Under the pieces are notes generated by a model that made no database searches, was not told the origin of the DNA, and saw nothing but the letters and a program-made list of their open reading frames with translations. The position numbers and the translations under genes were made by a program. Positions 1 through 58,877 of a stretch of DNA of 58,877 nucleotides are shown in pieces. Source of the DNA: Nemertoderma westbladi (Eukaryota; Animalia; Xenacoelomorpha). The stretch is taken from contig JAUCBJ010001357.1 in assembly GCA_032718475.1 (NCBI GenBank), positions 1 to 58,877 on the forward strand. Reading direction: 5' to 3'. Each line of letters starts with the position of its first letter. The first letter of the stretch is position 1.

Positions 1-1
1 C

Positions 2-1312
2 TGCCTCTGCCTCTGCCTCTGCTGCCTTTTTTGTTGCCTCTGCCTCTGTCGCTGCTGCTGCTATCTTTCTTGCTGCCTCTGCTTCTGCAGCTGCTACTGC
101 CTTTCGATCTTCTATTCGTTTTTTCTGGACTTGTGTTTCCTGGGCTCTAGCGATGCGTCTTTCCTCATCAAATTTAGCTTGATCTTCAGCTAACATCTCA
201 GCATCGAGGTCGTCCAACACACGCTTAGCCCCTGCACTATTAGGTGAAAGTCCATGCAGCCGTCTTCTCAACTCCTCGTCTCCTATGAATCGCTGATAAT
301 CTGACAAATATGTATCAATTGCATCTCTCTTTGGTGGACCTTCTGGTGTTTCTTCGATTTCCACTTGAGAAAGGAGGGCATCAGTTGATTCATCGTAGGA
401 GGGTTGCTCCATCAGCCGGGGTTTCCACTGGGCTGTCTCTTTAACTTCGCGCTCTATTCGCTGGAACCAAGTTTTGACAGCGACTTGCAGAGAAGTGTCC
501 TGCTTTCTTTTCGACGTTTCCTCAAAGGCCGATAGGATCAGTCTAATACGTAAGGTACTTGCACGTATTTGATAACGCAGCTCTTCCTGTTCTTGAGGTC
601 CTAGGGTTTGTCTAAACAGCTGTTCCTGCTTCTGTAAGGAGTTGAAAAATCCCCGCACATATCCTGCTGCGGACTTCTTCCAAACAGCTGGATCCATAGT
701 ATCTTTAGCCACCCCCATCTTGTGTATATCTTCCCAAGTCACTTCTGACAAATCGAGCGGTAATCCTATTCCAGGATTATTCCAATTTGACTCGACGACA
801 GACATCAATTCTTCCCTTGCGTATCCCCAATAACTATCTTGGGTCGATTTCTTGTTTCTCGCCCAATCTTTTAGGTGTTCCTCCACCGAGATCAAGACCG
901 CAGCCATCTTCGCAGTCGGTAGAGTGAGAAGGGGATCAAGGTAAGAGGGATCCAATGTCTCCACTTTGCGTTCGGGGGTCAGCTCTACAGTATCAGAATT
1001 ACTGGAGCTGTCAGATCGCTGGGAAATAGGTTCTGGACCAGGAGGTTGTTGTGGTGGGCCAGCTTCTTCTCGGTTCCGTTTGACCTGGGCCCGAGTGCCT
1101 ATAATAGACCTATGGTGTGTTGACTTGGGATCTAATTCTACTACTAGAGGGGTGACTTTCCTTTCAGTAGGAGGTGAACTGGGCTCTGCCTGAGTCCTAT
1201 CAGTCTTATCACTCCTATCTGAGTCACAGATGGTAGTGTCTGGTGGACTGTCCGACAGGTTCTGTGTAATGTCTGATGGACTGTCCGACAGGTTCTGTTG
1301 TGTGTCAGACAT
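2..1312 (-). CDS. gag: Gag N-terminal region of copy A (partial, open to the window edge, so missing from the ORF track)
   Basis: Manual translation from the ATG at 1312 gives MSDTQQNLSDSP...GTRAQVKR...KRDAIDTYLSDYQRFIGDEELRRRL..., matching ORF 55253..56026. No stop was seen. Confidence 0.85.
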   Translation of the reverse strand, partial: MSDTQQNLSDSPSDITQNLSDSPPDTTICDSDRSDKTDRTQAEPSSPPTERKVTPLVVELDPKSTHHRSIIGTRAQVKRNREEAGPPQQPPGPEPISQRSDSSSNSDTVELTPERKVETLDPSYLDPLLTLPTAKMAAVLISVEEHLKDWARNKKSTQDSYWGYAREELMSVVESNWNNPGIGLPLDLSEVTWEDIHKMGVAKDTMDPAVWKKSAAGYVRGFFNSLQKQEQLFRQTLGPQEQEELRYQIRASTLRIRLILSAFEETSKRKQDTSLQVAVKTWFQRIEREVKETAQWKPRLMEQPSYDESTDALLSQVEIEETPEGPPKRDAIDTYLSDYQRFIGDEELRRRLHGLSPNSAGAKRVLDDLDAEMLAEDQAKFDEERRIARAQETQVQKKRIEDRKAVAAAEAEAARKIAAAATEAEATKKAAEAEAEA

Positions 1313-2689
1313 ATTTTAGTTGTACAGTTGAATGTCTACTGCTATAATCACAGTTAAAGCAAGTCTAGTAATTCAGTAAGACTGTTGGCCTAGTACCGGT
1401 AATTAATTGCAATATATTAGAATACCGGTATACACTTATAGTATATATAAGTATAACAGACTAGGTTTGTCACAAAGTACCGGTATATAATTTTAGCACA
1501 AATATATATAAATATATAATAGGCCTATCGTAAATACCGGTATACAGCTGACACTTATAGTATATATAAGTATAACTATTACTAGAATTAATTAAAGAAT
1601 ACCGGTATGATTTCAGTTCAAATTTATAGAAATAAATATAATAAACCTATTAGAGATACCGGTATATCAATTATTTAGGATAATTGAATTTCTGAAATTA
1701 TAAGTTACTTAGTTACTTGAGTTTACTTTGTTACCGTTATGCAAGCAGTAGTCCAACTGATATTGTGACCTACTTGTTGTATGGCAGGCCTACTGATTTA
1801 TAAATCTTTGGAGTTGATTTATAATATATATATATATATACCCTGATAAGGGATTTCGTTACAAGATTGAAATAGGTGTTACTATTTCCGGCAAAATACC
1901 ACTACACAGAAGCTAAGCGCTTTCAGTGAAGTACTACTTATGGGACACTAAACAGAATAATTCTACTGGCCTACGTTACTTATTTACTAGTTACTTACTA
2001 TTGGTGAGATTACAATCTCTAATAAACACACAAAACGTTACGTACAGCAATTTTTAGGGCAATTTTACAGGGAAACTACTAACCAGTCTAACAAAGGGTT
2101 AGAACTTCTGGCTATTACAACGAACAGGATACTACGGTATTTGAAAATAATGAGCAGAAGTAAATACTGCGTTGTCTAGGTAGGAAAATACCACCGCCTG
2201 ACGACCTACAGCCGTATCGCTATAGGTACAACGTTATGTATCTACGGAGTGTTCCTACCTAGAAGTTAATTACCGCCGTCTACCAGAACGAGCGTGCCTA
2301 TTAACCACTTTACAACACAATAATGCCTACACTAATTACTTTCGGAAAGCACTGTACACTAAACCCTAAATTAGGTACAAGTACTTGTAAAAACAGATAA
2401 CCAGTAGTTAAATATACTTGAACAGTTAAAAGAACCACAGCATCTGCTGGAGTGACCGGGGCACTAAGTCACCAGTCTTTACCTACGCCAAGCAGCCCGT
2501 GTAGTACTGGGGTTAATTTAACTATAACGGTATGTATAACAAACACAATTACTGTAGGAATAAACTTGGGGACATGAATGTTGCGAGTAATCGCATAAAC
2601 TCTGAATAATAAATATTACGCTACCCGTACAGAATACTCAAATAAAATACAAACCAAATGCTGACAAACTACCATTAAGCCTAAATAAA

Positions 2690-3165
2690 CTACAGGATGT
2701 GCAGATTCCGAAACTTGTTAGTGAGTATGCGTGCTAATACGGTAGCGCGGCTTATTCTTTATGGGGGTTGACCTTACAACTTACGAGTTGCCCCAACTTA
2801 CTAACTGGCACCTATCAGACTCTCTACACACGCGGCAATCTCTTCAGACCCAACAACAACTAGGCAACAATCCAGCCTACAAAATATCTAAATAATACTA
2901 TTACGGTATCTGAACAGACTATACAGACAGTACAGTATAAACGCTGACGGACTACTATCAAGCCTAAATAACCACAGTATATGCAGATTCCGAAACTTGT
3001 TAGTGAGTATGCGTGCTAATACGGTAGCGCGGCTTATTCTTTATGGGGGTTGACCTTACAACTTACGAGTTGCCCCAACTTACTAACTGGCACCTATCAG
3101 ACTCTCTACACACGCCGTAATCTTCAAGCCTAACAACAGTCAGACAACAGTCTAGCCTACAATGA
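2690..3165. repeat. ~282-bp tandem duplication in the copy A leader
   Basis: GCAGATTCCGAAACTTGTTAGTGAGTATGCG occurs at 2701 and 2983. The equivalent duplication in copy C lies at about 53350-53900. Confidence 0.85.
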
Positions 3166-3490
3166 TCTGAACAATCTGAGCAGACTTACACGTCTTCTAC
3201 TCAATACTAACTTACACGTGAATAAAATCGACAGAAATAAGTAAACTGTACAGAAGAATGAGGGGTGATCAATCCCTAATCCCCTAGCAGCCCACAATAT
3301 ACACTATATCACAATCGAAATAATACTAATGCACTTGGACAGCAGTACCGGTTATGACAGTTAGGCCTACGGACCTACGGTAATAGTACCGGTTATGACA
3401 GTTGGGCCTACTGACCTACTGGTACCGGTTCTGATGTACCGGTACTTTTCAATCTTATTGCTTACCGCAAATAAGATCGATAGCTATTAT

Positions 3491-4742
3491 TGTACGCGCT
3501 TTTATAGACCTTCAGCAGTTTAACCTGCCGAAATTTATATGTCTTTATTGATAAACTGCCTTTTATAAGATGACAAGATTTAATACAAAAACAAACCAAA
3601 AACATTAGCCGAAGCCAGTCCATGCGCGTCCAAATGACCCGTTTATAACACCGGGAGACTGGATTCGTGGGCTTAAATTTATTTGCGGTCAAGCCTACTG
3701 TATTATTCGATTGATTACTAATATATAATCTCTTACAAATATTATTCACTTTCGGGAAATATTAGCAGTTCCTTTTAGGACGTGGCGCTCTACCTATGTA
3801 AACAGAGTTATGACTGATACTACACACAACGATATGGCTTAAATTTCAAGCATAGGGCGCATTCTTTAGGAATGCTTTATTATCAGATTCAATCACTTTA
3901 CAATCACGCACGCTACCGGTAACGCACAACACTGCTCACTGATATGCCGACAGTTACTGACTTTTATCAGGTATAAAGAGATATGCACTGGACTCAGGTA
4001 GTGTCTGTCAAACAACATTAGATTCACTACAAACACAATAATAAAGTCGCAATTGTTGTACATAACCCTTCTCTCTAACCTGTAGTGTATCAAGGATATT
4101 GGGAAAATTGTGGGTTGATTATTGATATTCTTCAACTAATAACATCCAATTATACTGATACAAAATTACAAACAGTAAAAGCAGTATGACGGTAGGTTAA
4201 GATACAATTAGATTGCAAGTAATGAGATCAATGAATTAAAATGAGTTGAATGAATTGAATCGTTTGTTTGTTTGGTATGAATCGATAAGATAATAGCTAT
4301 GCTTTCTATAATTTAGCCTACTAATGTTCTTATAAAAAGGCAGAAAACATTTCGCTATTTCAACACGGTCTTAAAACACTGATAATAAAGTCTTAAAATC
4401 CTAACCAAAAGTCCCGTGACTTTAGCTCTCTTATTTTCCAAGAATCCCGTTCAACACATGTAATCAGCAGTGAGACAGGATAATTTCAGTTCAGTAGCTC
4501 GGGATTGGTCGAAATCAGAACTAACTCAACGCAGGGCTATGGGTAACTGGGGCAACCTTCCCAAGCCGGCTGTCCAATCGAACAGCTCAGATTCCTCCTA
4601 AAGGATTCCAACGCCTTGGAGGGGGGAACTGGTTAGCAAAGAAAACAAATCAGTCATATCCCAGAAAAACCTTTACAGTAGGTTTCAGAGTATTTTAGCG
4701 TATGGGGGAAAAACTGGGTTGCGGGGCGAAGGGCCAGTTACA
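3491..4742 (-). repeat. 5' LTR of copy A (~1.25 kb, TGT...ACA)
   Basis: On the minus strand it begins TGTAACTGGCCC (4742) and ends AAAAGCGCGTACA (3491), matching the ends of the B and C LTRs. The 4742 boundary is less certain because the U3 half is divergent. Confidence 0.7.
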
Positions 4743-4826
4743 TCCCACAGAAGCTTTTATAATAACAGATTTGTTTATTGTTGTGTATTGAGGTAATTAT
4801 TTTCAATTTACTTTAAAATTTGGAAA

Positions 4827-12142: not shown

Positions 12143-12173
12143 TTAATCATTTAACTTTTGTTTATCAGATAAA

Positions 12174-18674: not shown

Positions 18675-19219
18675 CTCTTTATTATCCTAAAAACAAATTA
18701 AAATTAATATGAATATTGTTATATATAATCAAAAAAATTCATAAGCTACTCAACCCAAATAAAATATAATATCTAAACTTTAATTGTGGTAATATTTTCA
18801 GAATGAGCTCGATTGAATCAGATGAGCTCTTTATATATATTTCAAGTTTCTACTTATGCCAACCAATCATAAATAACAGTTACATTGGAAACTAATATCA
18901 TAAATAAAGTTGCTTTTACAACTGAATTCTTTATAATAAAATCAAGTCTAAACAAAGATGTGCATAATGCGTTTTTAATTTTCATTGATAAAGTAGGTTT
19001 TACATGCTAATGTTTTATTATGGTGGTGTAATCTCACGCATTTACATGCGAATGTTTTATACCTAATCCCATGCTCACATTAAATATAAACTATCACCAA
19101 TATTTACTCAATAAAGTCACCTTTACATGTAAATACTTTATAATAATCATGCTTTGTGTTAAAAAGTTACCTTTACTAGTTAGTGTGAAACTGAAAAAAA
19201 GTCTCTAGTAAATAATAAA

Positions 19220-20263
19220 TCAATCTGATACTGTTTTTATATGTTCCTTATTGTAATCTGCTACCTCTTCACTTGCTTTTGTAACTTTTATTTTCTTTGT
19301 AGGTATAGAATCATTGTTGGGAATGGAAGATGTTTGAGATGTAGATCTGCGCTTTCTATCACTCGATGTCTCTTCGATGTATGTCTTTGGATTAAATGTG
19401 GATGAAAGTACTTCTGGAAATGACTTATTAACCTTAAACTTCCAAGTTGGTTGATATAGAATCGCGAAACCGTCTGCTATATCAGTTGATGAAACCTTTA
19501 ACATCATATCGTAGAGAAACTCTATATGTGGTATGTCTTTATCGTAATGTAACTGTAAATATTTGCTTTCCTTGTCTGTAATAATTACTTTTTTTTCTTG
19601 TACATTTATTTTTACTTTAAGTCGGTCAGATAAAGCTTTATCGCTCGTATCTAGCTCTGAAAAGACACCTTCGTTACTAATTTCATAATTTCATTCATAC
19701 CACAATGAATTTACTTCCGATGCTGTTAAGTTAAACCCATTATAATACCTAAGACCAATAGCATCAGAATATCTAGCTGAAATCTCCCATAGTCCCATAT
19801 AAGTCGTTCCTTTATATTTACTTACAAAACCAACAACAGATGGGTTGGTTAAATTAACAACAGAACACTGATTTATTATTTCGAGTGGTGGTGATAACAA
19901 TTCTAATATTTCTGTCTTACTCTGAAGCAATAAATTAATGAGTGATTTGTTTAGAATTTGACATTTGCCTTGCTTCTGAATATATACGTTTTCAGTAATA
20001 ACGCAGGTGGAAATATTTAACTTTCCTCTTGTAAATTCTATATTAGGATAAATATTACCTCTTGAAACTGATGATTCCTTTTGTCGGTTGATTAATATTT
20101 CTAAGATGTCTAGAATGTAGAGTGTATCCCAGTAAGAGAAGCACGTTGTTACATTGCTATCGCTTGTGTGTAATATAAAGTACTTGCCATAAACAATACT
20201 ACAGGTATATTTATTACATGTAAATTTCCAAGTATTGTTTGAACTTTTTTTAAATAAATCCAT
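19220..20263 (-). pseudogene. Polinton protein with a PC4-like ssDNA-binding/coactivator segment (~347 codons, in-frame TGA at 19691)
   Basis: The two ORF-track pieces share a frame and the linker is open. VVGFVSKYKGTTYMGLWE...GFNLTASEVNSL resembles PC4 (VxxFKGxxYIDIRE...GIxLxxEQWxxL). Confidence 0.55.
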
Positions 20264-21111
20264 AATTAGAATGAAAACTATTTTGAAAAATAAAAAAACT
20301 AAATAAATGATTATTAGATTGTAAAACTTCGGTTTATATGCTTGCTTTATTACAACAGAGTGACTTACAGTGAATAATATAGTAGTTTCGTGTAACAGAT
20401 GCAACGTGTACAGCTAAAATTATTACATTAGCGTGAGTTAGAGAGTGAAATAGCAGTAACGAGTAACAGATGCAACGTGACCAATGTTAGTCCTATCAAT
20501 CTAACTTATATTCAACTTAGTTGACCGACCAGTCACATATATACATCGATAAAAGAAATCGATTATTATTAATAGTCGAATTAATGTATTCTATGCTATA
20601 GTAATTATGTTAAGGAACTAGAATCTATTTATAAACATCTGCTACCAGTGATGAAGATGAAGAATTCAATGGCTATGGTATAACTCAGATATTTATTGCC
20701 TTTTTCTCTCGTGGTTGGATGGAAGAGTGTGTGGAGAATTGCGGTAAAACACTAGGGTACAGCAACGTGGAGAAGTAGCGGGTGGGTGGATAGGAAATCA
20801 TTGAGTTGACAACAATCAATCAATAACAAACAACACTAAAGAGAGAGGGAGAGAAAAAGTGAAAGGAAGAGTAACCATCATAGCTACGGTAGGTATACGA
20901 ATGGATGGTTAAGTTAGGCTACGTACTGTACAGTACAATATCATATCATATCATCGATTGAATATTTTTTGAATATTCTTTTTCTCTCGAGGTTGGGTGG
21001 AAGAGTGAGTGGTGAGTTGTGAGGAGTTATAACAGTCCCGAGTTCGAACCCAGTTGAATATTTTGTTATCTGAAAAATTGCAAAATTAAATTTAGTTACT
21101 GGTGAAAATTT

Positions 21112-21450
21112 GTAGAAGTTACCTGTAGACACCCCTAGCATCTGTAAAATAAAGGTTGGTGAATATGAAAATACTGGTTGCTGAAAAATAGCGATTTGAA
21201 AAATAGTAGAAGTTACCTGTAGACACTCGTAGCACCTGTAAAATAAAGGTTGGTGAATATGAAAATAATGGTTGCTGAAAAATAGCGAAATGAAAAATAG
21301 TAGAAGTTACCTGTAGACACTCGTAGCGCCTGTAAAATAAAGGTTGGTGAATATGGAAATACTGGTTGCTGAAAAATTGCGATTTGAAAAATAGTAGAAG
21401 TTACCTGATGCTAAGTGTAGACACCCGAACACCTGTAAAATAAAGGTTGG
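21112..21450. repeat. 94-bp subterminal tandem repeat (~3.5 copies) in the presumed right TIR of the Polinton
   Basis: AGTTACCTG occurs at 21117, 21211, 21305 and 21399. Confidence 0.9.
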
Positions 21451-21544
21451 TTATTGGACTGAGTACTAGCGTTGGGTGACTAATAACACCTCTAGCGGAA
21501 GATGCGGGAACTTGAGAAGTTGCCATGGTTACGGATGAAATGCT

Positions 21545-21683
21545 GACATCTGATTGGTTGAAATAATAACGACCATTGGAAAAGGTTGAAATGGTGGCTT
21601 CTGATTGGATGGAGTACTAAAATTGGATGGTAATGATGGGCTATGGGTGACCATGGCGCCGGTTCACACAATTGTATACTACT
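21545..21683 (-). promoter_or_regulatory. Polinton terminus / putative protein-primed origin with two CCAAT boxes
   Basis: Terminal AGTAGTATAC on the minus strand. CTGATTGG occurs at 21550 and 21601. Confidence 0.55.
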
Positions 21684-22297
21684 GATACTCTTCCCACGAC
21701 CACCTCCCTGATCCAACAAACATCTAGGGACTCCCCAACGTAACAGCGTCTGGAGTGGGTGTGTGACTATATTATTTATGTTTGTTTCATTATTTTTATA
21801 CTTATGTATGTATTATTATGTAATTTTATTATAATCGTTTTCTTTAATTTTATTTAGTAGAATGTTATTTTAACGATTATTTAGTAGATTAGTGCAATAT
21901 ATATTAGTGTTTATTACTTAATTACTTATATATTATATATTTAGAGCGACGGCGAGAAATAATTCTTTTTCTCTTTCCTTACTGTCCGTATTACATTACA
22001 AATACGTAACTACAGTAAGATGAAATATCCGTACTTATTAAAGTACAATAAAGCTCCTACTATATTCAAGTATTATTTGGTAAAGTAGAGTATTAGGAAT
22101 GCAAAATTCAGATCCTCGTGTCTCGGCTAAACCAAGCTCTGGGTAGACCTTGGAAACGACTTGCCTCTTCTCACTGACATTGCTTTGTGCGATATTGCTC
22201 TCATACCGTATATTAAATAATACATATAGTAGCGTGATGTCCCTTTAACAGTAGCGTATAACGCAAAATAAATCTGTTAAACCCTTTGACCATCTGT

Positions 22298-22570
22298 AAT
22301 TCTAGTCGATTAAGATATCGCGGCACCCACCGATATACTTGAAAGACAAAATTCTAGAATCAGTGGTTAACGTCCCCAGACAAGTTCTGGAATAAACTGG
22401 TGCCCATCCTAAATATTAACTATTAATATTTATAAAATCTGTCAAATTTTAGATCCTTTAAAATTCTAGTCTATTAAGACATCGTAGCACTTACCGATAT
22501 TTTTAAAAAGACCAATTTCCTAGAATCAAGGATCCTAGTCCCCAGACATGTTCTGGAATAAAATTGTGTC
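22298..22570. repeat. Diverged tandem duplication (~165-175 bp period) in the copy B spacer
   Basis: AATTCTAGTC.ATTAAGA.ATCG...CCCAGACA.GTTCTGGAATAAA occurs twice. Confidence 0.75.
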
Positions 22571-23381
22571 TATTTAATATTAAATAATAAAATTTACGGG
22601 AATAAATTTAAATTCATATTTTAATGAATTTGATAAATTGTCATTTTTATACAATTTATAACTTTCCCAAAATTCCATTAATTAATAGATCATGGGAGCG
22701 GAGATTTACCCTATTAAGTGTATTAGTGTGCGAGAATCTCCAATATATAGTCAATAGCCGATAAAATTTATAAAATCATGTATAAAGGGGATATTGACAA
22801 TTAAAGAATTACTATTAAATAGCATCCCAGATCTGTATGCATGAGAATTACCCTAATTCTACCGCTAGCTTTCCATAATGTCACCATAGCAACAACCACG
22901 CTAGAATTAGAAGTGAGTTAAAAGAACAATAGAAAGCTTACCCCATTGAATAGCATAGGGAATAAATAGCACACTGCTAGTATCCAAGGATACATAATAA
23001 TAACGTAGCATTCTGGAAGGCACTTGACTAATGGACAAATGGCCCGAATGTGTACAATTTGTGACAGTTGTGTGGAATTTGTGCATTTATAGGTGAATGT
23101 TACTACTAAAGTGTATTTACAGTAGCGAGTCGCAATTGTGAAAGTAGCCCTAACTCTGCAGCAAGAACCTGAAGTAAATCTAAGCCTTTGGGATGGACAG
23201 TGGAGTGACTTGTGCCGGTTATCGTTGTCGTTGTGTAGCTACTACGTTGGCGAAAACACAGCGACGACGGTACATCGGCGCTGAGGATCTTGCACTGTCC
23301 GGGGGCAGAGAGGGGTAGGCAGCGACGCCCGCTAGCCTAAATATAAACTCATTATAATATTGATAAACTCATATAGCAGAT

Positions 23382-26300
23382 ATGACTGAGTTGATAGAAG
23401 ATGATCTTGGTATCAGGGAGCGATATACTCTACCTTTACAAGCGTTTGTTGATAGCTTGATACGCGGCGACGCTGGTCCAACTACTACGGAGGACGATGG
23501 TCGTTATATCGAACCGCCAATGTCCCAGGAGCAACTTACGCGTGAATTGGACTATAGAAAATTCACCGCTCGCTATACGCATCGTAATGGTACGTATATG
23601 GACTTCTTAACTACTGGCCATCCTATCTATTTACACGATACGGATGATGTAGACACCGAAAGGGAAATGGTTTTATTTAAATATCATACCCAGCGGAGTC
23701 GGAACGATAAACCGAGAATAGAACACGAGAATTCTATTCGAAACAGACTCGAAAGGGAAGATGTTGAAGAGCCGGATAAACGCAGCGACTTCAACGATTA
23801 TCTGGAATTCCTGAGAGAAACATATCTCAATATTGCCAGTCAACAAAATCTAGAAACTCGATATCCTCAAGGTATACATCATGACCCTATGATAGAACTG
23901 AAACGACTCTATTTCACTATGATGTATCTTACCGCCGATTGACCGCTACCTGTCGTCCCAGATAGCTTCGAACAGATGGAGGAATATTGTAAAACTGGAG
24001 AACGATCACCCGCGTTTCCCCTGCAGGACGTGCGTCTTTGGTATTACTGCGACAAATGCCCTAGACCCAATCAGCAAACGGAAAGACATAAACATCCGCG
24101 GAGACGTTGCGCTAAACACAGTTTTACACGATATACTTATGGGAGTTTCGAGCGAAACCTGTTCGATATATCACCTACGCTCGCTCGACTCAAACGATCC
24201 TTAAATAAACCGATGATCAGAGTTCCGGAATACTCGGTCAGACCTCCTCATTCCTCAGTGAGACCTCAAACGCTTGATCCTAATAGTATAACGGATCCCC
24301 CTGAACTGTACTCACTATTTAAAGATCTTGTGTTACCCGAACAATTAATCGGTGGCACTCAGGTAGTGGGCTCTCTAGATATTCGCCAACCCTACCTAGC
24401 CGGATTAGGACGCGGTCATCTAATATCGCCGTTTAACCCGTACAACCGTCCAGGCTTAACCCCGGTACAACCCGTTACCGAAGTCGAAGAGAGTGTTGTA
24501 CGAAACGCGTTAGACGCTATTCGGCAGAAGATCGGAAAGGGAACTTACGATTGTTTAGAGAAACGCAAATTGCAGCAACAAGTCCAAGCGGTGAAAGAAT
24601 TAGCTTTACCCCAGTTCGATAGAGAAATCCAGAATCGCGAGGAAGACATCGAACGTGGACGAACCTACTCTCTACAAGAGTTCCTAGACGAGCGTTTACA
24701 ACAACAAGCGGAGGAAAATCGGCTCGAGGAGAAACACATAGAAATGGATGAGAGAGAAGAAGCAGCTTTAGCCCAGCCGGCAGCTCAAATCCTTATGACA
24801 GATCTCTATTCTAAAACCATCATCCATCCTTAGATGGTTCCCCATTTCGGAGACAAACTCTTCGCCACGGCACAGCCTCAACCGGTTGATATCAACCTAA
24901 GATCTCAAGATCTTATCGCTGACGTTCCCATGTTGCAACGTCTGCCAATCGAGGCCGCTCGTGTCGATGGTATACTTGTTGAACCTCCGGACAATAGAGC
25001 GGATCTTGTCCGTCGTATGGTACACGAGGTTAACATACGCGCTAGACCTTTACCGAACTCGTTTTATGGGATCAAAGATAACCCTTATTATGTCAATCTA
25101 ATGCAATATTACATGGTAAAACCGGAAGATCCTACACATAGTCTGAGGTTTCTACCACTAATAAATCCTCTCGATCTTGTCGAACTCGAACAACTGCAGA
25201 AACATCTGGATCAGTTAGTCAAAGTAAACTCATTTCGAAAACCCTATAATGTTTCCAGAATAGAGAAAGAGACAATACCTCCGTATAATCTTGATGGATT
25301 CATCAAAACTCGATTAGTAAACTGGAATCTCGATGTGTTATTCGAGGAGGAAAGAATACAACGATATGGAGATGTAGAGACATATACTATACAATATTTA
25401 AAGTATAGAGATCTACCTAATGCTAGCGAATGCGCTACCTTATGGCATCCAGTGGGAATGACTCTAGAAAACGCCACTAAAGAGTGGAATGAGACTCTTA
25501 ACGTTATCGAGATGTATGGAGTTGTCACCTACGATAACGAAGGTAGCGTTCCGGTTGGAGAACTGGGAACTACGCGAATGATACATATACGAGGACTAGC
25601 TGGTTCTACCCACGTATTTACTCGAGCGTGTTCCGATGTGATTGATTATTCTTTTGAGACCCTTACCGAGATACAAAAGAAACTCCGACATGGACAATTC
25701 GAACTCGCGCAGCGTTACGTCACCGACACCGAGCGCAAACCGGCCATGGGTATCGATGGATCGATGTTACCCCAGCCCGTGCTCGAGATGTTGTTTAACG
25801 AAAGAATCCTTAAAATCGGCTCAGCTGTTTATGGAGATCTCCAAAACGACTTTCGGAACATGGAGAACATTCCATACCCTTTCGTCGATACTCAGCTGAT
25901 TGCTCCCTGGGCAGAAGGCCGAGGTTTCTTCCGCACTATGTATGCAAATACACCCAGCGGCATTACTAAAGTACAACGAACCTCCATCGGACATCTTGCC
26001 TTTCAAGAATACGGATGGAATTTCAAGGTTGGAAATCCTATCAACTACCAACAAGTATATGGAGATCATTATTCTCGATTATACTTTGACGGACCATTGA
26101 CCGCACCTGGCGCCGTATATAGCTTTATGAGAGTTCCACTTCGTCCCTCCTTAGCTATATACACGATCTTTGAAAACGCCGCACTTGCCGGTTGGCTAGC
26201 CGATGTGTGCAGTCGTACCATACGCGCCCATCCCTTAATACATGGAACCAAACTCGCCAAGCTAGATGAACACAATAAATTCATCCGCTTCGAATGTTTC

Positions 26301-27638
26301 AGGCGCTTTCTGACTCCGTTCCGTAACATTGATAGTCAGTTCAAGGACCGCGCCCTGACCAAACTCAGCCTAAGAGACTCAGCAGCGGAGAAGTTAGACA
26401 GCGCGGGATTCACCCTTTTCAAGGACGTTTGTATACAGAACTTACATTCATCTGTTATACAAAGACCTCGAATACCCACGGGTTATTCTGTCATGGAAGT
26501 TCAGACAGTGGGTTCGCTTGCGGAGACAGCCGCACCTATCTCAGCTATGCAATTGGAAGACGAACCAATATGCTTAGAATCTGAGGAGATTCAGCCTACA
26601 GCGCCCCGGAGCAGCGATAACGACTATGTCTTGGAATGGTATCAAGGTCCACAATGTCTCACCGCATACGATTATCGGCACGCCAACTATATTTCTCGAA
26701 AACATTGCCAATTATGCGCATCGAGAGATCATTTCACCCCTATGGACTCAGACGTACCCTGCTCCTATTTCCATGAACAACCGATGATGGAGATCTATTG
26801 TGCGTATTGCAGACTCAATAACTCGCACATTTTTGCAGTCTGCCCCCAATTTATGACTCAATGCCACCACTGTCAACTTAAAGGAGGACATGCCAGTTTT
26901 AATTGCCCTTTTAACCGCGATCTGGAAAGAGTAGCTGAGATGATTACCCTGCGTTACATCCGAGCTTGGGAAGCGAATGCGGATTTACATTGTGAGTCAC
27001 GCCATCGCTATTACCCTGGACGCGCCTACGAGGGAGTTTACGCGTTCCATCCTTATCTATTCGCGTCTGTTGAACAAAAAACACGCACACCGAGTTACGA
27101 ACTAATGAAGCGTGTTGGTGAGTGTATTTCCACCAAATTTGTTCGAAAATATCTCAGGAACGTCAATCCTAACGATATTAATTCATACCATTTGATCAAT
27201 TTCATCCGTCAAGACCCTGAGTATGGCGATTTATTTATCAACTCGCACCCTGAGTTACAGGAAGTATCTCGACGGCCCTACGAATATCGAGCCCGAGAAT
27301 GCGAGCTGGAAAGAACCATTAAACCGAGGAAGTTTCTCACCACTCACGGTCCACCTACCGCTATTGTCCAGACGACTCGTCAGGGACCAGTAGGAGCTGC
27401 TGTCCTAAGACGCCCCCTAAAGGCTGTTAGACCTCGCTCCACTGAAGTTGATATCGATCAACCAGGTACCTCGACCGGCGGATACACAGATCGTAATCCT
27501 AAACCTTCTGATGCAATTGTATTGCACCCTTCACCCAGGAGTTATAGCCCTCCTAGTAAAGTGGCTCGCCCTAAAGAGAAAAGGACTCTTGCTATCCTCA
27601 AAAAACTGCGTAAACGCCGTCCGCGTAAGAAAGACTAA
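23382..27638 (+). pseudogene. Extra ORF of the LTR element (~1418 codons, two in-frame stops): coiled-coil, DnaQ/WRN-like 3'-5' exonuclease, three CCHC zinc knuckles, basic NLS-like tail
   Basis: Three ORF-track pieces are in one frame (TGA at 23940, TAG at 24831). Motifs: VVTYDNEG, LPQPVLEMLFNERILKIGSAVYGDL, FVDTQ, AIYTIFE; CQLCx4Hx9C, CAYCx5Hx4C, CHHCx5Hx4C; KKLRKRRPRKK. Confidence 0.75.
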
Positions 27639-27708
27639 CTGTTTAGAGTATTTTTATATTTTAGAAACTGTGATTTTTTATTTTTTTTAGAATTAAATCC
27701 CATTTTCT

Positions 27709-27716
27709 GGGAGCGG
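27709..27716 (+). other. Polypurine tract of copy B
   Basis: GGGAGCGG lies immediately before the TGTAAAGG LTR start. Confidence 0.7.
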
Positions 27717-28915
27717 TGTAAAGGCTTTTGCGGAATTAGCTGGTTATTTTTCCCGCAAAGTACTCTGTAGGTGTTTTAACGGACATAAAAAACCGTTTCC
27801 TTACTGTACCGGTGTTTTAGTGGACATAAAAAGCCATTTCTTCTGTATGTGTACTTTAGCGGACATAACTAGCGATTTTATGTCGCAATAAGCCAAAATC
27901 CTCTTGATACAGTATAGTTACCATGACGACATCTAACAGCTGATATGTACACGTGTAACTTTTCCTTTGTTTCTTTGTTCGGTCAACCAATCAGGGCGAT
28001 TCTCATGTTATTTGTACAGAAACCTCCGGGAAATCGCGCAATGCATTACGGTTTATGTTTACCTTTTTTCCTGATGCCAGAAGACCAGCTGTGGAATATT
28101 TCTGTGTTTCAGGCTTTAGCAAAACATTAGTAGGCTTTGATCATAGAAACGTATAACTGTTATCTCATATCACAAGTCAAACGCAACATATCAAACGAAT
28201 CACACTTGTCATATGGTCATATCTCATACAAACACCGCATTATTTTACTGCTATTTACTGTCGGTTATTAATTATATCAGTTGATGGAATATTGTTATAT
28301 TTGGATAATATCGATAAATAATCATAAAACCCCAATCTTCTTGATATACTGAATGTAAGAGACTGGTTACATATAACGATTGCGACTTACATTAAAGTGG
28401 TTTTGGAGTGAATCTAATGCTATTTCATAGGCACTACATGTGTCGGTTGCTGTTCTCTTTATATGTGAGTAAAATTAGTGAAGGTCGGCAGATCGGTGTG
28501 CAGCATTGTGCGGTAGTGTGCATGACTGTGACAGATAACAAAGCATCTCCTAAAGAATGCGCCTTATACGTGAATCATTAGCCATCCCGTTGTGTTTAGT
28601 GTAAGTCATAACTCTGTTTACATACTTAGAGCGCCACGTCCTAAAGGAACTGTTGATATTTCCCGAAAGTGAATAATATTTGTCAGAGATTATATATTAA
28701 CGATCAGTCGAATAATACAGTAGGCCTACACCGCAATAAGGTCAGAGCTTCCGAATCCAGTCTCCCGGGTATATCCAGCGGGTGAATGGTCGCACATAGA
28801 CTGGCTTCGGCTAATGTAGTGTATCAAATACTCGTCATAGGCTAAAGTCGATTTATAACCTAGAAGACACCTAAATTTGGCAGGTTAAACTGCTAAAGGT
28901 CTGAAAGCGCGAACA
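27717..28915 (+). repeat. 3' LTR of copy B (~1.2 kb, TGT...ACA)
   Basis: Colinear with 51904-53069. Homology stops at GCGCGAACA. Confidence 0.9.
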
Positions 28916-29715
28916 TATATTTCACTTTCCAGTATTCTCCCATGTGAAGAATACCCTTCAAATAATTTGTGGTGATGTGAAAGAAACAACTAATGTCTAT
29001 GTTCGCCCATTGCATCTATTGTCCCGTTATCATTACTATTTATTATTATCATTTATTATCCCTCAGATAAACGCGGTTGGTATTGTTGGTTGGAACTGCT
29101 TTTGATTCTATATTTAATGATGTAAATTTTTCAGTTAGTGGAGATTTTCGGGACGATACAAACCAATAACAAACAACCTAACAGATAACTGAATGGACAT
29201 AATATTATTAAGCTAAATGCTGGTTTATTCGTTTATTTTTATGTTACATTTATCGGAACCAAACTGCACCTAAAACTATCTGACTACATGACTATGTTGT
29301 AATACCTTCTGATTTTCAGTGGTCTATATTCTGATATTAGACTAATTTTAATTTCGTTCCCATGGTACCGTACCCAATATTGGCAGGAGGCAGTGAAGGG
29401 TAATATTCAGTTAATCCGCATCATATCGGTAAGTCAATTATTAAATAAATTAAATTGTTTCAGAGAATAATAATTAATGTAATTAATTCATATAAGTGTT
29501 ATTTATTATTACTTACTATGGTACGTGGTACGGTACTGAATTAGACCCTAGGCCTAACTAATTAATTGAACGTGTTGTAATAAAAGAAGTCTATTAATTA
29601 ATTACCTGCAATAATATGCCGGTTATCTTTACAGAAATCCACAGCGTCGATGTGGCTCCCAGATCCTTCAATCCGGTTGATAACCTCCCCAGTTACAGAA
29701 TTTATTATATTATAT

Positions 29716-30452
29716 TTATTTATATATATTCTCCCCAACAGCATCGATCCTCAACCCGTTGGGACTCAATACGATCTTCCGGACCTCAGGAGTTGCTTCC
29801 TGTCTCCACAAGGTCTCCCCTGTACCAACAACGAAGCGATGGATCATCCCTCCCTCACTTACCGACACCACAGTCTCCCCATCCGGACCCCAACACAGAC
29901 CCCAGACCCTCCCACTGTGCCCCCGGTATTGGTACAACAGCTCCCGGGTTCCGGTCCGCCAAACTTTTACTGTTCTATGCCGCGAACAGCTGGCCAACCG
30001 GGACCCGTTCGAGTCGAACCGAATACATTTAACCCACCCAGAATGCCCCACCCAGTTCGTAACCTTATAGTTCCTACCAGTTATTGATATAATAGAAATC
30101 CCCCCGACGTCCCCACATGTTGCTATGACGTCCCGGTTGGAGGGATTTATATCTATTCCCGCTCTACCCTCCCCCTCACCAACCACTAACTCCCACCCCG
30201 GTACCTCCACTACGACCCTCCAACCGCTCGCTTCCCGCTCCCAGACAGTCACCGAACCCCCAAGGTTCCCGAGGCAACGCGGTTCCCGTCCGTAGAAACC
30301 GCGACTGTGTAGTAATCGATAGAACCTCCGGATCGCGGTAGATATTCCTTTTCGTAGAGAGTCGATGAGTTTATGATACAGGGGAGGTTGTGAGACACAA
30401 AGACAAACTCTTCGGTACCCGGGATAAGTTTGAGATCCCGGATCGCCGCCAT
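29716..30452 (-). pseudogene. WD40-repeat protein (~245 codons), with one frameshift in a G homopolymer
   Basis: VAVSTDGNRVASG..VTVW, GHSGWVKCIRFDSNGSRLASCS..RTVKVW, GHSGRVWGLCWGPDG. Adding one base in the C5 run at 30257-30261 joins the two ORFs. Confidence 0.8.
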
Positions 30453-30768
30453 TGTTAGGGGAATTATTGAATCTAAAAGATAAAATAACATTTAACTATA
30501 ATTTATTCTTCTTAATCGAATATAATTATATATAATAAAGGGGGGGGGGGGGGGGGGGGGCGCTACCGGGCCCCGAAATCTAAATCTAATGGAATATATG
30601 TTATAGTACTTTTTTCTTTTATCATTTTTAGGCCTTTTTACATCACTCATAGGAAAGTACAATGTTATTCCCGTGCTCTGCCAGAAATGGCAACCATGCC
30701 TCAAAGAATAACTATTATACAGTGTTGTAGAAACCACTGTAACCCCGTATGCCGGCCATGCGTGTTAA

Positions 30769-51903: not shown

Positions 51904-53069
51904 TGTAAAAGCTTTTGCGTAATTAGCCGGTTATTTTCCCCGTAAAGTACTCTGTAGTTGGTTTACTGGGCATAAAAAGGCCGTGTCCTTACTGTACTGG
52001 TGTTTTAGAGGACATAAAAGCCATTTCTTCTGTATTTGTACTTTAGAGGACATAATCCGCAATTTCGGGACGCAATAAGCTCGATACTCTTGAAAACAGT
52101 GTCGCTACCATGACGACGGCTAACAGCTGATATTGCCACGTCGACATTTCTTTGTTTCTTTGTTCTCTCGTTGTTCGGTCGACCAATCAGAGCGTTTTTT
52201 GTCTCTGTGTTGGAGGTGGATACAGAAACTCAGGAATTCAGTGTTATGTTTTTGCCCAGAGCCTAAGAACACCGGCTTTTGGCACCTCCGTGTTTCAGTC
52301 TTTAGTCTTACATTAGTAGGCTTAATTATAGAACGTATATCTGTTATCGAGTTAACGAGTTACCTTATCAATGCTTACTAAACATATCATGCATATCTTA
52401 CTTAACATTACTGCTTTTGCTGTCGGTTATTCATTATATTTGTTGATGGAAGATTATATTTGGAATACTGATCAATAGTCAGACACCCAACCTTCTTGAT
52501 ATACTAAAGGTTAGAGAGACCGGTTACAGATAAACGATTGCGACCTATGTTAAGTGGTTTGAAGTGAATCTAATGCTATTTTATAGGCCCTACATGTATT
52601 GTCTGTTATTCTCTTTGTATGTGACTAAAATTAGTGAAGGTCGGCAGATTGGTGTGCAGCATTGTGCAGCATTGTGTATGATTGTGACTGATAACAAAGC
52701 ATCTCCTAAAGAATGCGCCATATACGTGAATCTATAGCCTTTTCGTTGTGTCTAGTTTAAGTCATAACTCTGTTTACATATTTAGAGCGCCACGTCCTAA
52801 AGGAACTGTTAATATTTCCCGAAAGTGAATAATATTTGTCAGAGATTATATATTACGATCAGTCGAATAATACGGTAGGCTTACACCATCAATCATTAAG
52901 CTTCCGAATTCAGTCTCCCGGGTATATCCAGCGGGTGAATGATTGCGCATAGACTGGCTTCGGCTAATGTAGTGTATCAAATACTCGTCATAGGCTAAAG
53001 ACTATATATCATCTAAAAGACATCCTAATTTGGCAGGTTAAACTGTCAAAGGTCTTAAAAGCGCAAACA
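51904..53069 (+). repeat. 5' LTR of copy C (~1.17 kb)
   Basis: TGTAAAAGCTTTTGCG...GCGCAAACA, colinear with 27717-28915. Confidence 0.9.
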
Positions 53070-55252
53070 ATAACAGATATTGCTTCTGGATTGCGGTGTA
53101 AGCAATCTAGTCGAAAGTACCGGTCGACCGGTAACCAGTAGGCCTGACTGCCTGATCATCCGGACCGGTACTTACACGTACAGGTACAGCAGTATTATTC
53201 GATTTTGATAATTATATACCGGTAGGCCTTAATAATTAATCAGGGACTGCAGCCCTGGTTTTTTATTGAGATTTTACTTATTTCTGTCAGTTTTATTTAT
53301 TTGTAGGCCAGTATTGAGCAGAAGGCGTGTAAGCTTGCTCAGTCTATACAGACAATTGTAGGCTGGACTGTTGTTGTCTGGCTGTTGTTGGGTCTGAACG
53401 GATTGCAGTGTGTGTAGAGTCTGTCCGATAAAGTACGGTTAGGAAGTAGGGGCAGCCAGAGCTGTAAGGTCAATCCCCACCTAAAGAATAAGTCGTACTA
53501 CCGTGTTAGAACGCATACTAACTAACCATTTTGGAATCTGCACATACTGTAGTTTATTTAGGCTTGATAGTAGTCTGCCAGCGTTTGGTCTGTACTTTGT
53601 TTGTGTAGTCTGTACGGGTAGCGTATAATTTTATTTAGATAATTTGTAGGCTGGATAGTTGTCTGACTGTTGTTGGGTTTGAGGAAATTTCGGTGTGTGT
53701 AGAGCATCTGTCCGATCAAGTGCTAGTTGGGAACGTAGGGGCTTCAAGTGCTGTGAGGTAAACCCCCTGTGAAAGAATAAGTCGTACTACTGGGTTAGAA
53801 CGCATACTAACTAATCATTTCGGAGTCTGCATATACCGTAGTTTGTTTAGGCTTGATAGTAGTCTGTCAGTATTTGGTCTGCATTTTGTTTGAGTGGTTT
53901 GTACGCGTAGCGTAATATTTATTATTCAGAGTTTATGCGATTATTCGCAACATTCATATCCCCAAGTTTATTCCTACAGTAATTGTGTTTGTTATACATA
54001 CCGTTATAGTTAAACTAACCCCGGTACTACATCAGGGCTGCTCGGCGTAGGTAAAGACTGGAGATTTTATGCTTTGGTCACTCCGGCAGATACCGTGGTT
54101 CTTTTAGCTGTTCAAGTATTTTTAACTACTGATTATTTGTTGTACAAGTACTTGTACCTAATTTAGGGTTTAGTGTACAGTACTTTCCGAAGGTGATTAG
54201 TGTGTAGGCAGTATATTTGTGTTGTAAAGTGGTTAATAGGCACGTTGGTTCTGGTAGACCGCGGTAATTAATCTCTAGGTAGGAACACTCCGTGATACAT
54301 AACGTAGTACCTATAGCGATACGGTTATAGGTCGTCAGACGGTGGTATTTTCCTATCTGGACAGCGCAGTATATTTACTACTACTTATTATTTTCAAATA
54401 CCGTAGTAACCTGTCCGTTGTAATAACCAGATATTCTAACCCTTTGTTAGGCTGGTTTGTAGATTCTTGTAAAATTACCCTAAAAATTTCGTATTTGTAA
54501 ATTTTTGTGTTTATTTAGAGATTGTAATCTCAACCCGAATTGTACGTAATTTGTAGTATTAAGTAACTTAGGTAAATTAGAATTATTTGTTTTAGTGTCC
54601 AACAAGTAGCACTCCACTGAGAGCGCACAGCTTCTGTGTAGTGACTCCCCCCAGAAATAATAACATTTATTTCAAATATTGACAAAACCCATTTTAAACG
54701 GGTATATATATATTATAAATCAACTCAAACGATTTATAAATAGTAGGCCTGCCATACAACAATTAGGTCTCAATATCAGTTGGACTACTGCTTAAATAAC
54801 GGTAATAAAGTAAGTAAAGTAACCTTACCAAGTAACCCTTAAAAATTCAGAAATTCAATTATTTAAAATAATTGACATACCGGTATTTACGATAGGCCTA
54901 TTATCTTTATTTCTATAAATTTAGGCTGAAATCATACCGGTATTCTGCAATTAATTCTAGTCCAGAATTATACTTATATATACTATAAGTAGGCTGTATA
55001 CCGGTATTCACGATAGGCCTATTATATATTTATATATTTGTGCTAAAATTATACCGGTATTCTGTAACAAACCTAGTCTGTAATAATACTTATATATATA
55101 CTATAAGCATACCGGTATTCTAATATATTATATATATCACGCTACACTGAGTAGCAGTATCGGTAATTAATTGTTAGGCTAACAGTGATACTGAATTACT
55201 AGACTTGCTTTAACTGTAATATAGCAGTAGGCATTCAACTATACAATCAAAC

Positions 55253-58200
55253 ATGGCTGACACAAGGCAAACTCTGTCAGATAGTCTCCTAGAAACAACA
55301 GCCTGTTTCTCAGATCAAAGTGTAGAGAATCCCAGACCGAGGTCTGAAACCCCTCATACTGTAAGAAGGGCGACCCCTGCAGTGGTTGTGTCAGAACCTA
55401 GGTTGGTAGAAGCGATTTCGCAATTTGCGAAGTTAGTGAAGCGCCGTTGGTCTGCCATAGGCACTCGGGCCCAAGTCAAGCGGGATCAAGAAGCAGCTGT
55501 CAAACAGCAGCAACATCCTAGCCAAGAACCTAGTTTTCAGCGGCCCGATAGCTCCAGTAGTTCGGATACTGTTGAGCGGACGCCCGAACGCGGAGCGAAG
55601 ATGGCGGATAAGGTTTATGATGAGTGGCCAACCTATGAAGAATCAACCGACGCCACTTTTTCTCAAGAAGAAAGCGAAGTGACAGCAGAGAAACCGCATA
55701 AGAGGGATGCTATTGATATCTATCTGTCAGACTATCAACGTTTCTTAGGTGATGAAGAGTTGAGGAGAAGGTTGGACGGACTTAACCCTAATAGTGAAGG
55801 AGCACAGCGTGTGCTTGACGCCATCGACGTGGATAGGTTAGCAGCGAACCAAGCTAAATTCGATGAACAACTCCGCATCGCTAGAGACCAAGAAGAAAGG
55901 GTGAAGAAGAAACGCATAGAAGACAGAAAGAAAGCAGCAGTAGCAGCTGCAGAAGCCGAAAGATCTCCTGCTCGGACAGATGCAGGAGACCGTTCAGCAA
56001 TTCAAGGGCACAGTAAGGGAAAGTAGGTTAGAGTTGCAAGAAGTGCAGCAAAGTATCGCGCTAGAACGCGATAAATTAGTAAATACACAAAGGGGTATAC
56101 CACCACCCCCTGTAACAATGTGTCAACCTGTTAGGTCTGAAGTATCTCATGCGCAAGGTGTGGAGCCTACACGCATCTATACTGCTAGCAAAGTAGAAAC
56201 TCCTATAGTGAACCCTATTAAGGGTAATTATAGACCTGTTGATAATGACATTCCCTATAGACCTGATCATAATCCGAGAAATTTATATACCGATAACTCG
56301 ATATTAAATAACACGATGGCCCAAGAAAGTTTTACGCGTCAAATGGCTAGAACCGAAGCCCGGCAAGCGGTAAAGGTGGGAGAGATAGTCAAGTTCAATG
56401 GAGATGAGATGAAATGGTTGCCTTTTAATGAATATTATAAAGATAACATACAGAACTCTGTACTATCTAATGGAGAGAAACTTAGATTCCTCATCGAGTG
56501 CTTGGAAGGATCTCCCAAGTTAATGGCGTTAAAGTTTATTGGACATCCAGACGGATTAAGACAAGTTTGGGATACACTAAACATCAGGTATGGTAATAGG
56601 AATAACATAGCTAGGTATTTGTATGCAAAATTAATGGCGCCCCGAAAGTTTCTTAGCAGCGGGATTATAGAGTTTTCCGATGAGATTCAGGAGATCTGTA
56701 GACAATTAGATTGGCTAGGTAAGTCTCATGAATACCAGAATTATATGGTTGTAGGAGCCTTAGCATCTACTTTGCCCAAGGGTGGAGTAGGTACACGCTG
56801 GGACAAGAAAGTGTTATATATGATGGAACAACAACGACGAGACCCTACCATGGCTGATCTCATGTCATTCTTAGATGGAGAAGTGAAATTACAGCTCCTA
56901 AGGCAGTCCAGAGAGAAGACACTGGAAAACAAGGTAAGTGAGAAACCCGTTTCTAGGAGAAGGGTAACACCAGTGTGTTATACAGACGACGGCGAAAGCC
57001 AGACTTCTCAAGGAGAGGATAGCGGGAAAGACACTGAAAGATCTTATTATGTCAATAAAACGCCTAAAGACCAGGTAAGTAAATTCAAGTCTCGAACCAA
57101 TGACAGGAGAGAACAGGTAAGAAAAACTCCTCCTACGTCTCCCAAGAGAATTCAGGTGAGAAAGCCCGAGGAAAGAACGAACGTGCACCACACAGCACAT
57201 GTTAAAGTAAGTAACATCAAGCCCAAATGTGTGCTGTGCGATGGGCCCCACCGTTTAAGTGCGTGTGATGAATTCCTGAGGAAATCACTAAAGGACAGAC
57301 GTGAAGTCATGTGGGATAAGCGGTTGTGTTATAATTGCCTCAGACGAGGACACCAACGGCGAACCTGTTACTCCGACGTAAGGTGTGCAAAGTGCGGCGC
57401 AAAACATCATATCTTGTTGCACACGGAATTCGAACGAAACAGCCCGAGTCAGGTAAGTGAGTCCGAACTACATGTCCAATTCAGTGATGTGAACGACACT
57501 GACCAATATTCTGAGATGGAAGGATTCTATACGGACGAATTCTCCAACGAAAACGAATCCTGTTACCTAACAAATACCGCAGTGTATCGAGCACTTACGT
57601 ATGAAAAAGACACCGACAGCGAGCCCCCCCTAACTACTTCTGACAGACAACCATCTTGGAAAGCACCACCTTCCAATGTAGGAATCCGAGAATTTCCTGT
57701 AGTACAGGTAAGGGTCCACGGACCTAAAAGGAGTTATGTAGTGAACGCCCTCCTTGACTCCGGTAGTACAGGAACATTCATCGACAAAGAACTAGCCGAA
57801 GACATCTTTGCTGGACAACCCAAGTTCCGAACTAAGCTAAACATGTCAGGAATTATGCAGGTTTGGAAATCTACAGTAATCAGCAGATTATTATGTAGGT
57901 GCGTTGTCCACCCCCCAGGATGAACTAGGAGAACACAGCATAAGGTCAGTAAAAATGTTAGCGATAAAGAACTTCGCGACCAGCCAAGTGGAACCTTATA
58001 ACTGGGATGAGGACGATTTCACCCAGCAGTTTGAAATACCTAGATTCAACACCGATTACCCTGGAGTCCAAATACTCATCGGTCAAAATGCGCATGAAGC
58101 GCTCGAGACATTGGAGAAACGGCCTGCTCAACCGCAACCTCTACAAGTTTATGCGGGAAGAACTAGAGTAGGTTGGTACTTTACTGGCCCTTCTCGTAGA

Positions 58201-58659
58201 ACCCTTATGGAAAGATTACCAAAAAAACAGGTATATCAATTAAGTGAACGGGAAGTGGAGAGCAGTGAAGTTGACGACCCAACTGAGGGAACACCATACT
58301 CCTCAGATAATGACGACATCAACTCCAATGTAGATCAATGGAGACATTGCCCCGAGACGATCAATCTAGCCGACATCGCCTCCAGAGGAGCAACTCCTCA
58401 AGAACTTACAGATACTCCAGACTGGTTAGGTGAACCCGACTTCCTAAGTAAAGAAGATGAATGGCCTCCCCATCTTAACCCGGCGAAGATTAGACAGGCC
58501 AAGGGAGCGGAGAAAGTAACACAACCACTCAATCGCCCAGCTGGTCGTTTATGTTTACCGGAAAGAGACCGAAAACTGTCCGGAAACTATGGAAGGCAAG
58601 ATACTCTTCCCACGACCACCTCCCTAATCCAACAAATATCTAGGGACTCCATAACGTAA
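55253..58659 (+). pseudogene. gag: BEL/Pao Gag (DUF1759-like, triple CCHC)-aspartic protease polyprotein with RNase H and integrase C-terminal remnants; frameshifts near 55960 and 57880
   Basis: FNGDEMKWLPF, EKLRFL..CLEG, L..RYG, CVLC..PH....C, CYNCL..GH....C, CAKCGAKHHILLH, ALLDSGSTGTFI, ILIG, TRVGWYFTGP, WRHCP..NLADIASRG...W...PDFL...WP, LNRPAGRLC. Confidence 0.88.
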
Positions 58660-58877
58660 CAACATACGGAGTGGGTGTGTGACTACATTATTTTATATTT
58701 ATTTTATTATTTTATATTATGTATGTATTATTATGTAATTTTATTATAATCGTTTTCTTTAATTTTATTTAGTAGAATGTTATTTAGTGATTATTTAGTA
58801 GATTAGTGCAATATATTAGTGTTTATTACTTAATTACTTATATATTATATTTAGTGCGACGGCGAGAAATAATTATT

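Follow-up and report, generated by a model that had tools for sequence, protein, structure and literature searches.

A predicted DEDDy-type exonuclease gene in the third-gene position of a likely BEL/Pao-type retrotransposon family of Nemertoderma westbladi

The DNA analysed here is a stretch of 58,877 nucleotides from Nemertoderma westbladi (assembly GCA_032718475.1, contig JAUCBJ010001357.1), referred to as the window, and it carries three pieces of one long terminal repeat (LTR) retrotransposon family, copies A, B and C. Behind the pol tail of copy A lies a large open reading frame (ORF), ORF3 (23382..27638, plus strand), which is a real and family-wide gene and is probably under constraint. 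Its product probably combines a DEDDy-type 3'-5' exonuclease domain, with a predicted D-E-D-Y-E active site, and nucleocapsid-like zinc knuckles. We propose, with a probability of roughly 0.35, that this protein would be a zinc-knuckle 3'-5' exoribonuclease acting in trans against RNAs that feed host silencing or surveillance.

In the ORF listing, ORF3 is a single frame of 1418 codons that begins with an ATG at 23382 and ends with a stop at 27636-27638. Two in-frame stops, at 23940 and 24831, split the frame of copy A into pieces of 186, 296 and 934 amino acids (aa), matching the three ORFs in one frame of the original prediction. Contigs from four of the seven listed DNA runs (3 samples, 3 studies) were compared with the window over 21400-29200. 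A sense codon stands at both ORF3 stops in 99.4-100% of the contig depth in all four runs, with 80, 54, 43 and 3 contigs per run spanning one stop and 34, 24, 18 and 4 spanning the other. The breaks are therefore private to copy A, and other copies have one open frame. Programmed readthrough of the stops was considered and rejected, as other copies lack them. Introns in ORF3 are also unsupported, since GT..AG ends were found in 0 of the 15 joints listed (of 88 in total).

Depth per site at the listed ORF3 positions is 1e4-8e5, compared with 23-60 for three listed flank contigs (3 runs), and drops to flank level beyond 28968, past the 3' LTR of copy A. The family is probably high-copy, with hundreds of copies or more, depth being no measure of copy number. 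Among the best 12 of 87 indel rows, all 11 frameshifting indels lie outside ORF3 (p=6e-5) and the single indel inside it is 3 nt long, as expected if the frame is intact across copies. Gaps are likewise found in 3 of 23 pieces within ORF3 versus 5 of 6 in non-coding sequence (p=0.0025), a count made on 29 listed element-internal pieces (32 of about 108,000 pieces are listed, of which 3 flank pieces were dropped). Pieces that keep the ORF3 frame are about 83-89% identical. Weighing against constraint is that the indel and gap rows form a selected subset whose members are not independent of one another, and that AT-rich spacers gain indels easily. The 26 listed differences fall on codon positions in the proportion 10/6/10, and as they are mostly private to the decayed copy A they were not used as a test of selection.

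Three joints among those listed skip 2555-2805 nt, so that the nuclease is gone and both ends of ORF3 are kept. The centre of ORF3 is also several-fold less deep than its ends, which are at LTR-level depth. Nuclease-deleted derivatives are therefore common, and higher divergence could add to the dip in depth. The claim that ORF3 belongs to the element is borne out by its family-wide occurrence, by the sense codons at the stops in other copies and by the depth at its ends; the gene is not absent from other copies, being open in contigs of all four runs, and no terminal repeats of its own were found.

Predicted exonuclease domain and zinc knuckles

The probable DEDDy-type (RNase D/WRN-like) 3'-5' exonuclease domain occupies 25476..26213 (plus strand) and was recognised by remote sequence comparison. 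It lies wholly inside the unbroken 934-aa piece of copy A and could be assayed in its present form. ESM Atlas features of residues 190-520 score 0.93 to PF01612 clusters, and 10 of the 10 best named matches belong to that family or clan, against a background in which shuffled proteins get to 0.9 in 4-10 of 100 cases. The NCBIfam model TIGR01388 (RNase D) matches the window protein at E=0.004. A single homolog, P0001 (648 aa, E=4.8e-6), emerged when 1.84 billion proteins were searched exhaustively. A word-index protein search returned no ORF3 homolog beyond it, metagenome, viral and prokaryote contigs contained no ORF3-related loci, and plasmids and phages gave no matches above chance level. 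P0001 is 26-31% identical to the window protein in the parts that they share, with 31% over 150 aa of the nuclease region; it also pairs the nuclease with knuckles (E=8e-5 to those of the window) and terminates in a basic run. When the two proteins were combined, HHalign placed the pair with a profile built from the exonuclease domains of 12 bacterial RNase D/PolA sequences at 88% (E=3e-6, score 45), where 40 column shuffles peak at a score of 19.

All of the motifs named in the original prediction are at their stated places in ORF3: VVTYDNEG at 25521, ILKIG at 25806 followed by GDLQND at 25833, FVDTQ at 25881 and YxxxE at 26160-26174. In a global alignment, ExoI, ExoII and ExoIII of P0001 fall on those of RNase D, and through the alignment with P0001 the window residues become D 25533 and E 25539 in ExoI, D 25836 in ExoII, and Y 26160 and E 26172 in ExoIII. 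At ExoII, the Asp and the following DT motif are both present (HHalign E=3e-6, TIGR01388 E=0.004). At ExoI, the D-x-E reads DNE in the window, DVE in P0001 and DTE in RNase D, a transitive equivalence of low confidence. ExoIII has the form YxxxE in both the window protein and P0001 and pairs with the YAAAD of RNase D in global mode only. The predicted active site is accordingly D-E-D-Y-E in both proteins, and the assignment to the DnaQ/DEDDy nucleases holds as a probable one, except that the last acid is E and not D. Within these nucleases, the WRN/EXD1/Mut-7 subfamily of the original prediction is a candidate placement.

Several results weigh against this assignment. Profile comparison succeeds with P0001 but gives only 22% for the window domain alone, and the significant local match covers 47 columns around ExoII. 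MAFFT misaligned ExoI of the window protein with P0001, and the position of this motif rests on a separate pairwise alignment. The window protein has no Pfam match, P0001 reaches PF01612 at E=0.2, and sequence searches of the PDB with the window protein and part of P0001 returned no exonuclease. The structural check proposed for the nuclease segment failed, as both AlphaFold models have a low predicted local distance difference test score (30.5 and 29.6) and give no usable fold support. In addition, the E in place of the fourth acid may mean that activity is reduced.

The remainder of the protein is organised around this domain. The N-terminal part of about 700 aa (23382..25475) has no recognised domain by domain searches and sequence inspection; read from the sequence, it is acidic and contains a cluster of Cys and His residues around 24045-24120 as well as a charged, helix-like stretch around 24560-24780. 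Searches of the first two pieces of ORF3 gave no Pfam, NCBIfam or PHROG match, searches of the third gave no Pfam match, and 26190-26699 gave no HRDC match. Three Cys/His knuckles follow at 26706..26906, supported by zf-CCHC_3 (E=0.012), by motif reading and by their presence in P0001. Two of these have the predicted CCHC form (CX2CX5HX4C, at 26799 and 26862), but the one at 26706 is aberrant (CX2CX4HX9C). They show no significant similarity to the Gag knuckles of the element itself (best E 0.09), and the knuckles of P0001 have matches in retroviral nucleocapsid (E=1e-4) and in Air2 (E=0.064). The protein ends in a Lys/Arg-rich tail (27600..27635), as predicted, with 14 K/R in the last 30 aa, a composition that would resemble a nuclear localization signal (NLS). 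No transmembrane helix was found in any of the three pieces (highest 19-residue hydropathy 0.46, 0.97 and 1.19), and ORF3 is therefore not env-like, in agreement with the original prediction. An exonuclease domain and zinc knuckles that serve RNA recognition also come together in a Euglenozoa PF01612+PF00098 cluster (score 0.86, a lead only), in trypanosome RND, and in Rrp6, which works with Air2-type knuckle partners, but these are cellular and shorter.

A BEL/Pao-type family with a candidate self-primer

Copy A enters the window with the 3' tail of its pol (21684..21743, plus strand, with the stop at 21741-21743), recognised by its match to the pol tail of copy C (91.6% identity between 21684-21967 and 58600-58877). 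A Maverick ends at 21683 within this tail, for which reason copy A has no gag-pol in the window; its own gag-pol would sit to the left. A PPT-like (polypurine tract-like) sequence followed by TGT is present 8 nt past the pol stop (21752..21762) and is kept in copy C. It is possibly a central PPT or a relic LTR start, and no further LTR similarity was found in the spacer of copy A (best E 0.35). This spacer is AT-rich, non-coding and 1.6 kb long (21744..23381; the longest open frame in 21684-23400 has 52 codons), and it contains TATAAA at 23342-23347, 34 nt ahead of the ORF3 ATG, as a candidate internal promoter. Together, the PPT-like tract and TATAAA suggest what may be a separately expressed module added behind pol. 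A PPT (27709..27716) lies 70 nt past the ORF3 stop and is followed by the 3' LTR of copy A (27717..28915, 1199 bp, TG...CA), so that ORF3 sits between the end of pol and the PPT and 3' LTR as had been claimed. The LTR is 80% identical (920/1152) to that of copy C.

The gag and protease of the family are seen in copy C (51904..58877, plus strand; alignment and Pfam), which consists of a 5' LTR (51904-53069) with the candidate self-primer (52337-52347), a primer-binding site (PBS; 53070-53080), a 2.2-kb leader, gag and protease. Its gag is frameshifted and contains DUF1759 (PF03564, E=3.9e-12) and three knuckles, the triple knuckle ending CCHH, in what we take to be the BEL pattern, and its protease is matched as an Asp protease (E=2e-4). 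The pol of copy C (57666-58659) passes from the protease straight into RNase H-tail-like and integrase-tail-like stretches, the latter part being one open frame; these stretches have no Pfam match and presumably correspond to the tail regions of Pao-element RNase H and integrase. No reverse transcriptase (RT) or integrase core was found by ORF and Pfam search in any family copy within the window, and copy C is possibly a gag-protease non-autonomous subfamily. Copy B (1..4761, minus strand; LTR alignment) comprises an LTR (3491-4761), PBS (3480-3490), self-primer (4290-4300), leader and the start of gag, and appears to be inserted in the Maverick.

Because the window copies have no RT, membership of BEL/Pao is argued through gag and through the link between copies A and C (pol tail 92%, LTR 80%). 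The features found are LTRs with TG...CA and a PPT, together with BEL-type Gag and protease in copy C. The BEL/Pao label comes from the sister copy C and is an indirect one, copy A having no gag-pol in the window. Since a self-complementary 11-mer replaces the tRNA PBS, the family is best called likely BEL/Pao-type and not a textbook member of Belpaoviridae. Neither of the two 5' LTRs (copies B and C) is followed by a TGG tRNA-type PBS. Instead, each of these 5' LTRs is directly followed by 11 nt whose exact reverse complement is an 11-mer inside that LTR. The 11-mer lies at a homologous LTR site (4290-4300 on the minus strand with PBS 3480-3490 in copy B, 52337-52347 with PBS 53070-53080 in copy C), which corresponds to 28153-28163 in the 3' LTR of copy A. 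Both of the differences that separate copies B and C in the primer and PBS are compensated, and neither PBS matches the LTR of the other copy; with shuffled LTRs, a match arises in 19 and 23 of 20000 trials. The match is contiguous, with no intron needed, and the primer 3' end would lie at the LTR/PBS border.

One published definition of a self-primer asks that the PBS pair with 10 nt or more of the element's own 5' LTR (PMC6317226), and with 11 nt the family has a candidate primer of this kind. It resembles that of Tf1/Tj1 (PMC4600332), and Tf1/sushi elements share a PBS placed right after the 5' LTR and complementary to at least 10 nt within it (PMC4600332, PMC6317226). Self-priming is described there for the Ty3/gypsy elements Tf1/sushi and Tcn1 and for copia TAR elements, and extracts of these papers mention no exonuclease ORF. 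The ICTV profile of Belpaoviridae/Semotivirus has gag, pol and env only and an 18-nt tRNA-Arg/Gly PBS, which was not found here (PMC8742986). The family is similar to Belpaoviridae in its LTRs of about 1.2 kb, its PPT, a gag with DUF1759 and three knuckles, a protease after gag and the position of its third gene. It differs in its nuclease-like third gene, in a PBS that is self-complementary and in the absence of RT and integrase from the one pol that can be read. In extracts of PMC3118150, env is the only such extra gene mentioned. In open-access PMC and bioRxiv literature, judged mostly from listings and with Repbase outside its scope, no BEL/Pao exonuclease ORF and no BEL/Pao self-priming were found.

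Parallels to ORF3 exist in bdelloid rotifers, whose Juno and Vesta lineages are presumably of Ty3/gypsy type. These LTR retrotransposons have separate DEDDy ORF3s in the env position (PMC5408684), DEDDy ORFs are also present in Athena/Terminon elements (PMC6431247), and a DEDDy exonuclease is cited as a known accessory domain (PMC6338049). The likeness to Juno/Vesta and Athena/Terminon lies in a separate DEDDy ORF past pol that replaces env and has no transmembrane domain. Both the rotifer ORF3s and that of the window have an altered acidic motif and a putative function; the same functional guesses have been offered for the rotifer proteins, whose motif reads DEED and which in the case of Vesta2 and Vesta5 also contain a Cys-His-Cys motif (PMC5408684). 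Compared by description, ORF3 of the window differs in its BEL/Pao-type host, its D-E-D-Y-E site, its 1418 aa, its three knuckles and its high copy number. The cargo is therefore less novel than the original prediction supposed. Its novel aspects seem to be the BEL/Pao host, the protein's size and architecture, and the pairing with a self-priming signature. Earlier exonuclease cargo came from low-copy rotifer LTR families with no function assigned; here it occurs in another superfamily, at high copy and with the frame kept, which makes selection and copy-number effects measurable.

Possible functions of the ORF3 protein

In the mechanism that we favour, ORF3 as the third gene of a high-copy, likely BEL/Pao LTR family would be expressed from its own subgenomic RNA, as the 1.6-kb spacer and TATAAA would allow. 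Judging from the anatomy of the protein, its nucleocapsid- or Air2-like knuckles would bind RNA and its basic NLS-like tail would carry it into the nucleus. Nuclease-deleted copies would spread using protein from intact copies, and action in trans is suggested because copies without the nuclease spread. The nuclease, probably nuclear, would then trim or destroy element RNAs that feed host small-RNA silencing or RNA surveillance. This counter-silencing target is the least certain step and is held as tentatively as the proposal itself. DEDDy genes are present in LTR elements (PMC5408684), Terminons (PMC6431247) and Dada DNA transposons (PMC3706591), and since they recur in elements that replicate differently, a host-facing role is favoured. 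One viral nuclease of the DEDD group is also known to suppress sensing by the host (PMC3429428). Weighing against the proposal, copy number was not clearly linked to these ORFs in rotifers, and they did not depart from neutrality within the genome (PMC5408684). The substrate, location and expression of the ORF3 protein are moreover things that we infer from sequence.

Alternatively, the protein may serve replication of the element. It is possible, if rather unlikely, that the protein, packaged by its knuckles along with the genomic RNA, matures the primer by removing whatever overhangs unpaired at the 3' end of the 11-nt self-primer, up to the duplex, and so frees the 3'-OH from which reverse transcription starts. 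Such a role would suit a family that has no TGG PBS and shows 11-nt self-complementarity with compensated changes in two of two copies, a primer 3' end at the LTR/PBS border and knuckles that are nucleocapsid-like. However, the ORF3 protein lies outside Gag-Pol and has an NLS-like tail, and the primer of Tf1 is reportedly generated by the element's own RNase H (Levin 1996, cited in PMC4600332). The fuller scenario, in which a BEL/Pao lineage swapped tRNA priming for an 11-nt self-primer plus its own zinc-knuckle exonuclease to trim it, is a shade less probable. If true, that scenario would provide a nuclease dedicated to primer maturation, a first for LTR elements, and would be the first to assign a role to a retrotransposon-borne DEDDy gene. 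A second replicative role, polishing or proofreading of complementary DNA (cDNA) ends, in which 3' bases that are mismatched or were added without a template are removed ahead of strand transfer or integration, is doubtful. In its favour, some DEDDy enzymes are exonucleases that act on DNA, processing of cleaved 3' ends has been proposed for the DEDDy domain of Dada (PMC3706591), and a nuclear step would suit the NLS-like tail. The knuckles of CCHC type nevertheless point to RNA, as does the weak match to RNase D, and ORF3 is separate from RT and integrase. The self-primer offers a concrete substrate with which a role in replication can be told from counter-silencing, and either role would explain the repeated capture of DEDDy nucleases by mobile elements.

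A catalytically weak or dead RNA-binding scaffold or decoy, similar to EXD1 or Maelstrom and protecting or exporting element RNA, is unlikely, in about the same measure as the priming swap. It is suggested by the E for D at ExoIII in the window protein and P0001 and by some 700 N-terminal residues with no enzyme signature, and EXD1 and Maelstrom are themselves described as inactive DEDD derivatives (PMC5408684). Even so, two proteins that are just 26-31% identical have both retained the Tyr and all four acids, residues that dead enzymes usually lose. Finally, ORF3 could be passive cargo, whether a captured host gene, a nested element or a non-nuclease domain, an explanation that seems as doubtful as cDNA polishing. 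The domain evidence is remote with the fold unproven, P0001 is found on one 9449-bp contig and could be a cellular gene, and none of the contig pieces listed spans the interval from the ORF3 stop to the PPT. Against this, no terminal repeats belonging to ORF3 itself were found, the gene is intronless and stops 70 nt ahead of the PPT with LTR-level depth at both ends, and its frame is kept in pieces that have diverged to about 83-89% identity.

Other elements in the window

The Maverick/Polinton that cuts copy A extends over 4797-21683, with the right end ACTACT at 21683 and the left end outside the window. A split integrase and an adenovirus-type protease were identified by Pfam, and ATPase, capsid-like and pPolB-like ORFs by eye, the last of these broken by a stop at about 16380. 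Beside pPolB is a TATA-binding-protein-like ORF (14129-14716, minus strand), matched by PF00352 in two stretches (E=6e-9). At 41327-43019 (plus strand) and 29716-30495 (minus strand) lie APAF-1-like NB-ARC/APAF1_C ORFs, which are frameshifted and have no introns, and a WD40 fragment that stands apart from them; these are possibly retrocopied or transposon-borne pieces of apoptosome genes. The LTR of copy C begins right at the edge of a satellite block (43450-51903) built from units of 41 bp and 17 bp, which also includes inverted segments and a duplication of 4 kb (97%). An element at 32407-34583 resembles a miniature inverted-repeat transposable element, with 317-nt inverted arms that are 99% complementary and no long ORF, and a palindrome is found at 34809-35174.

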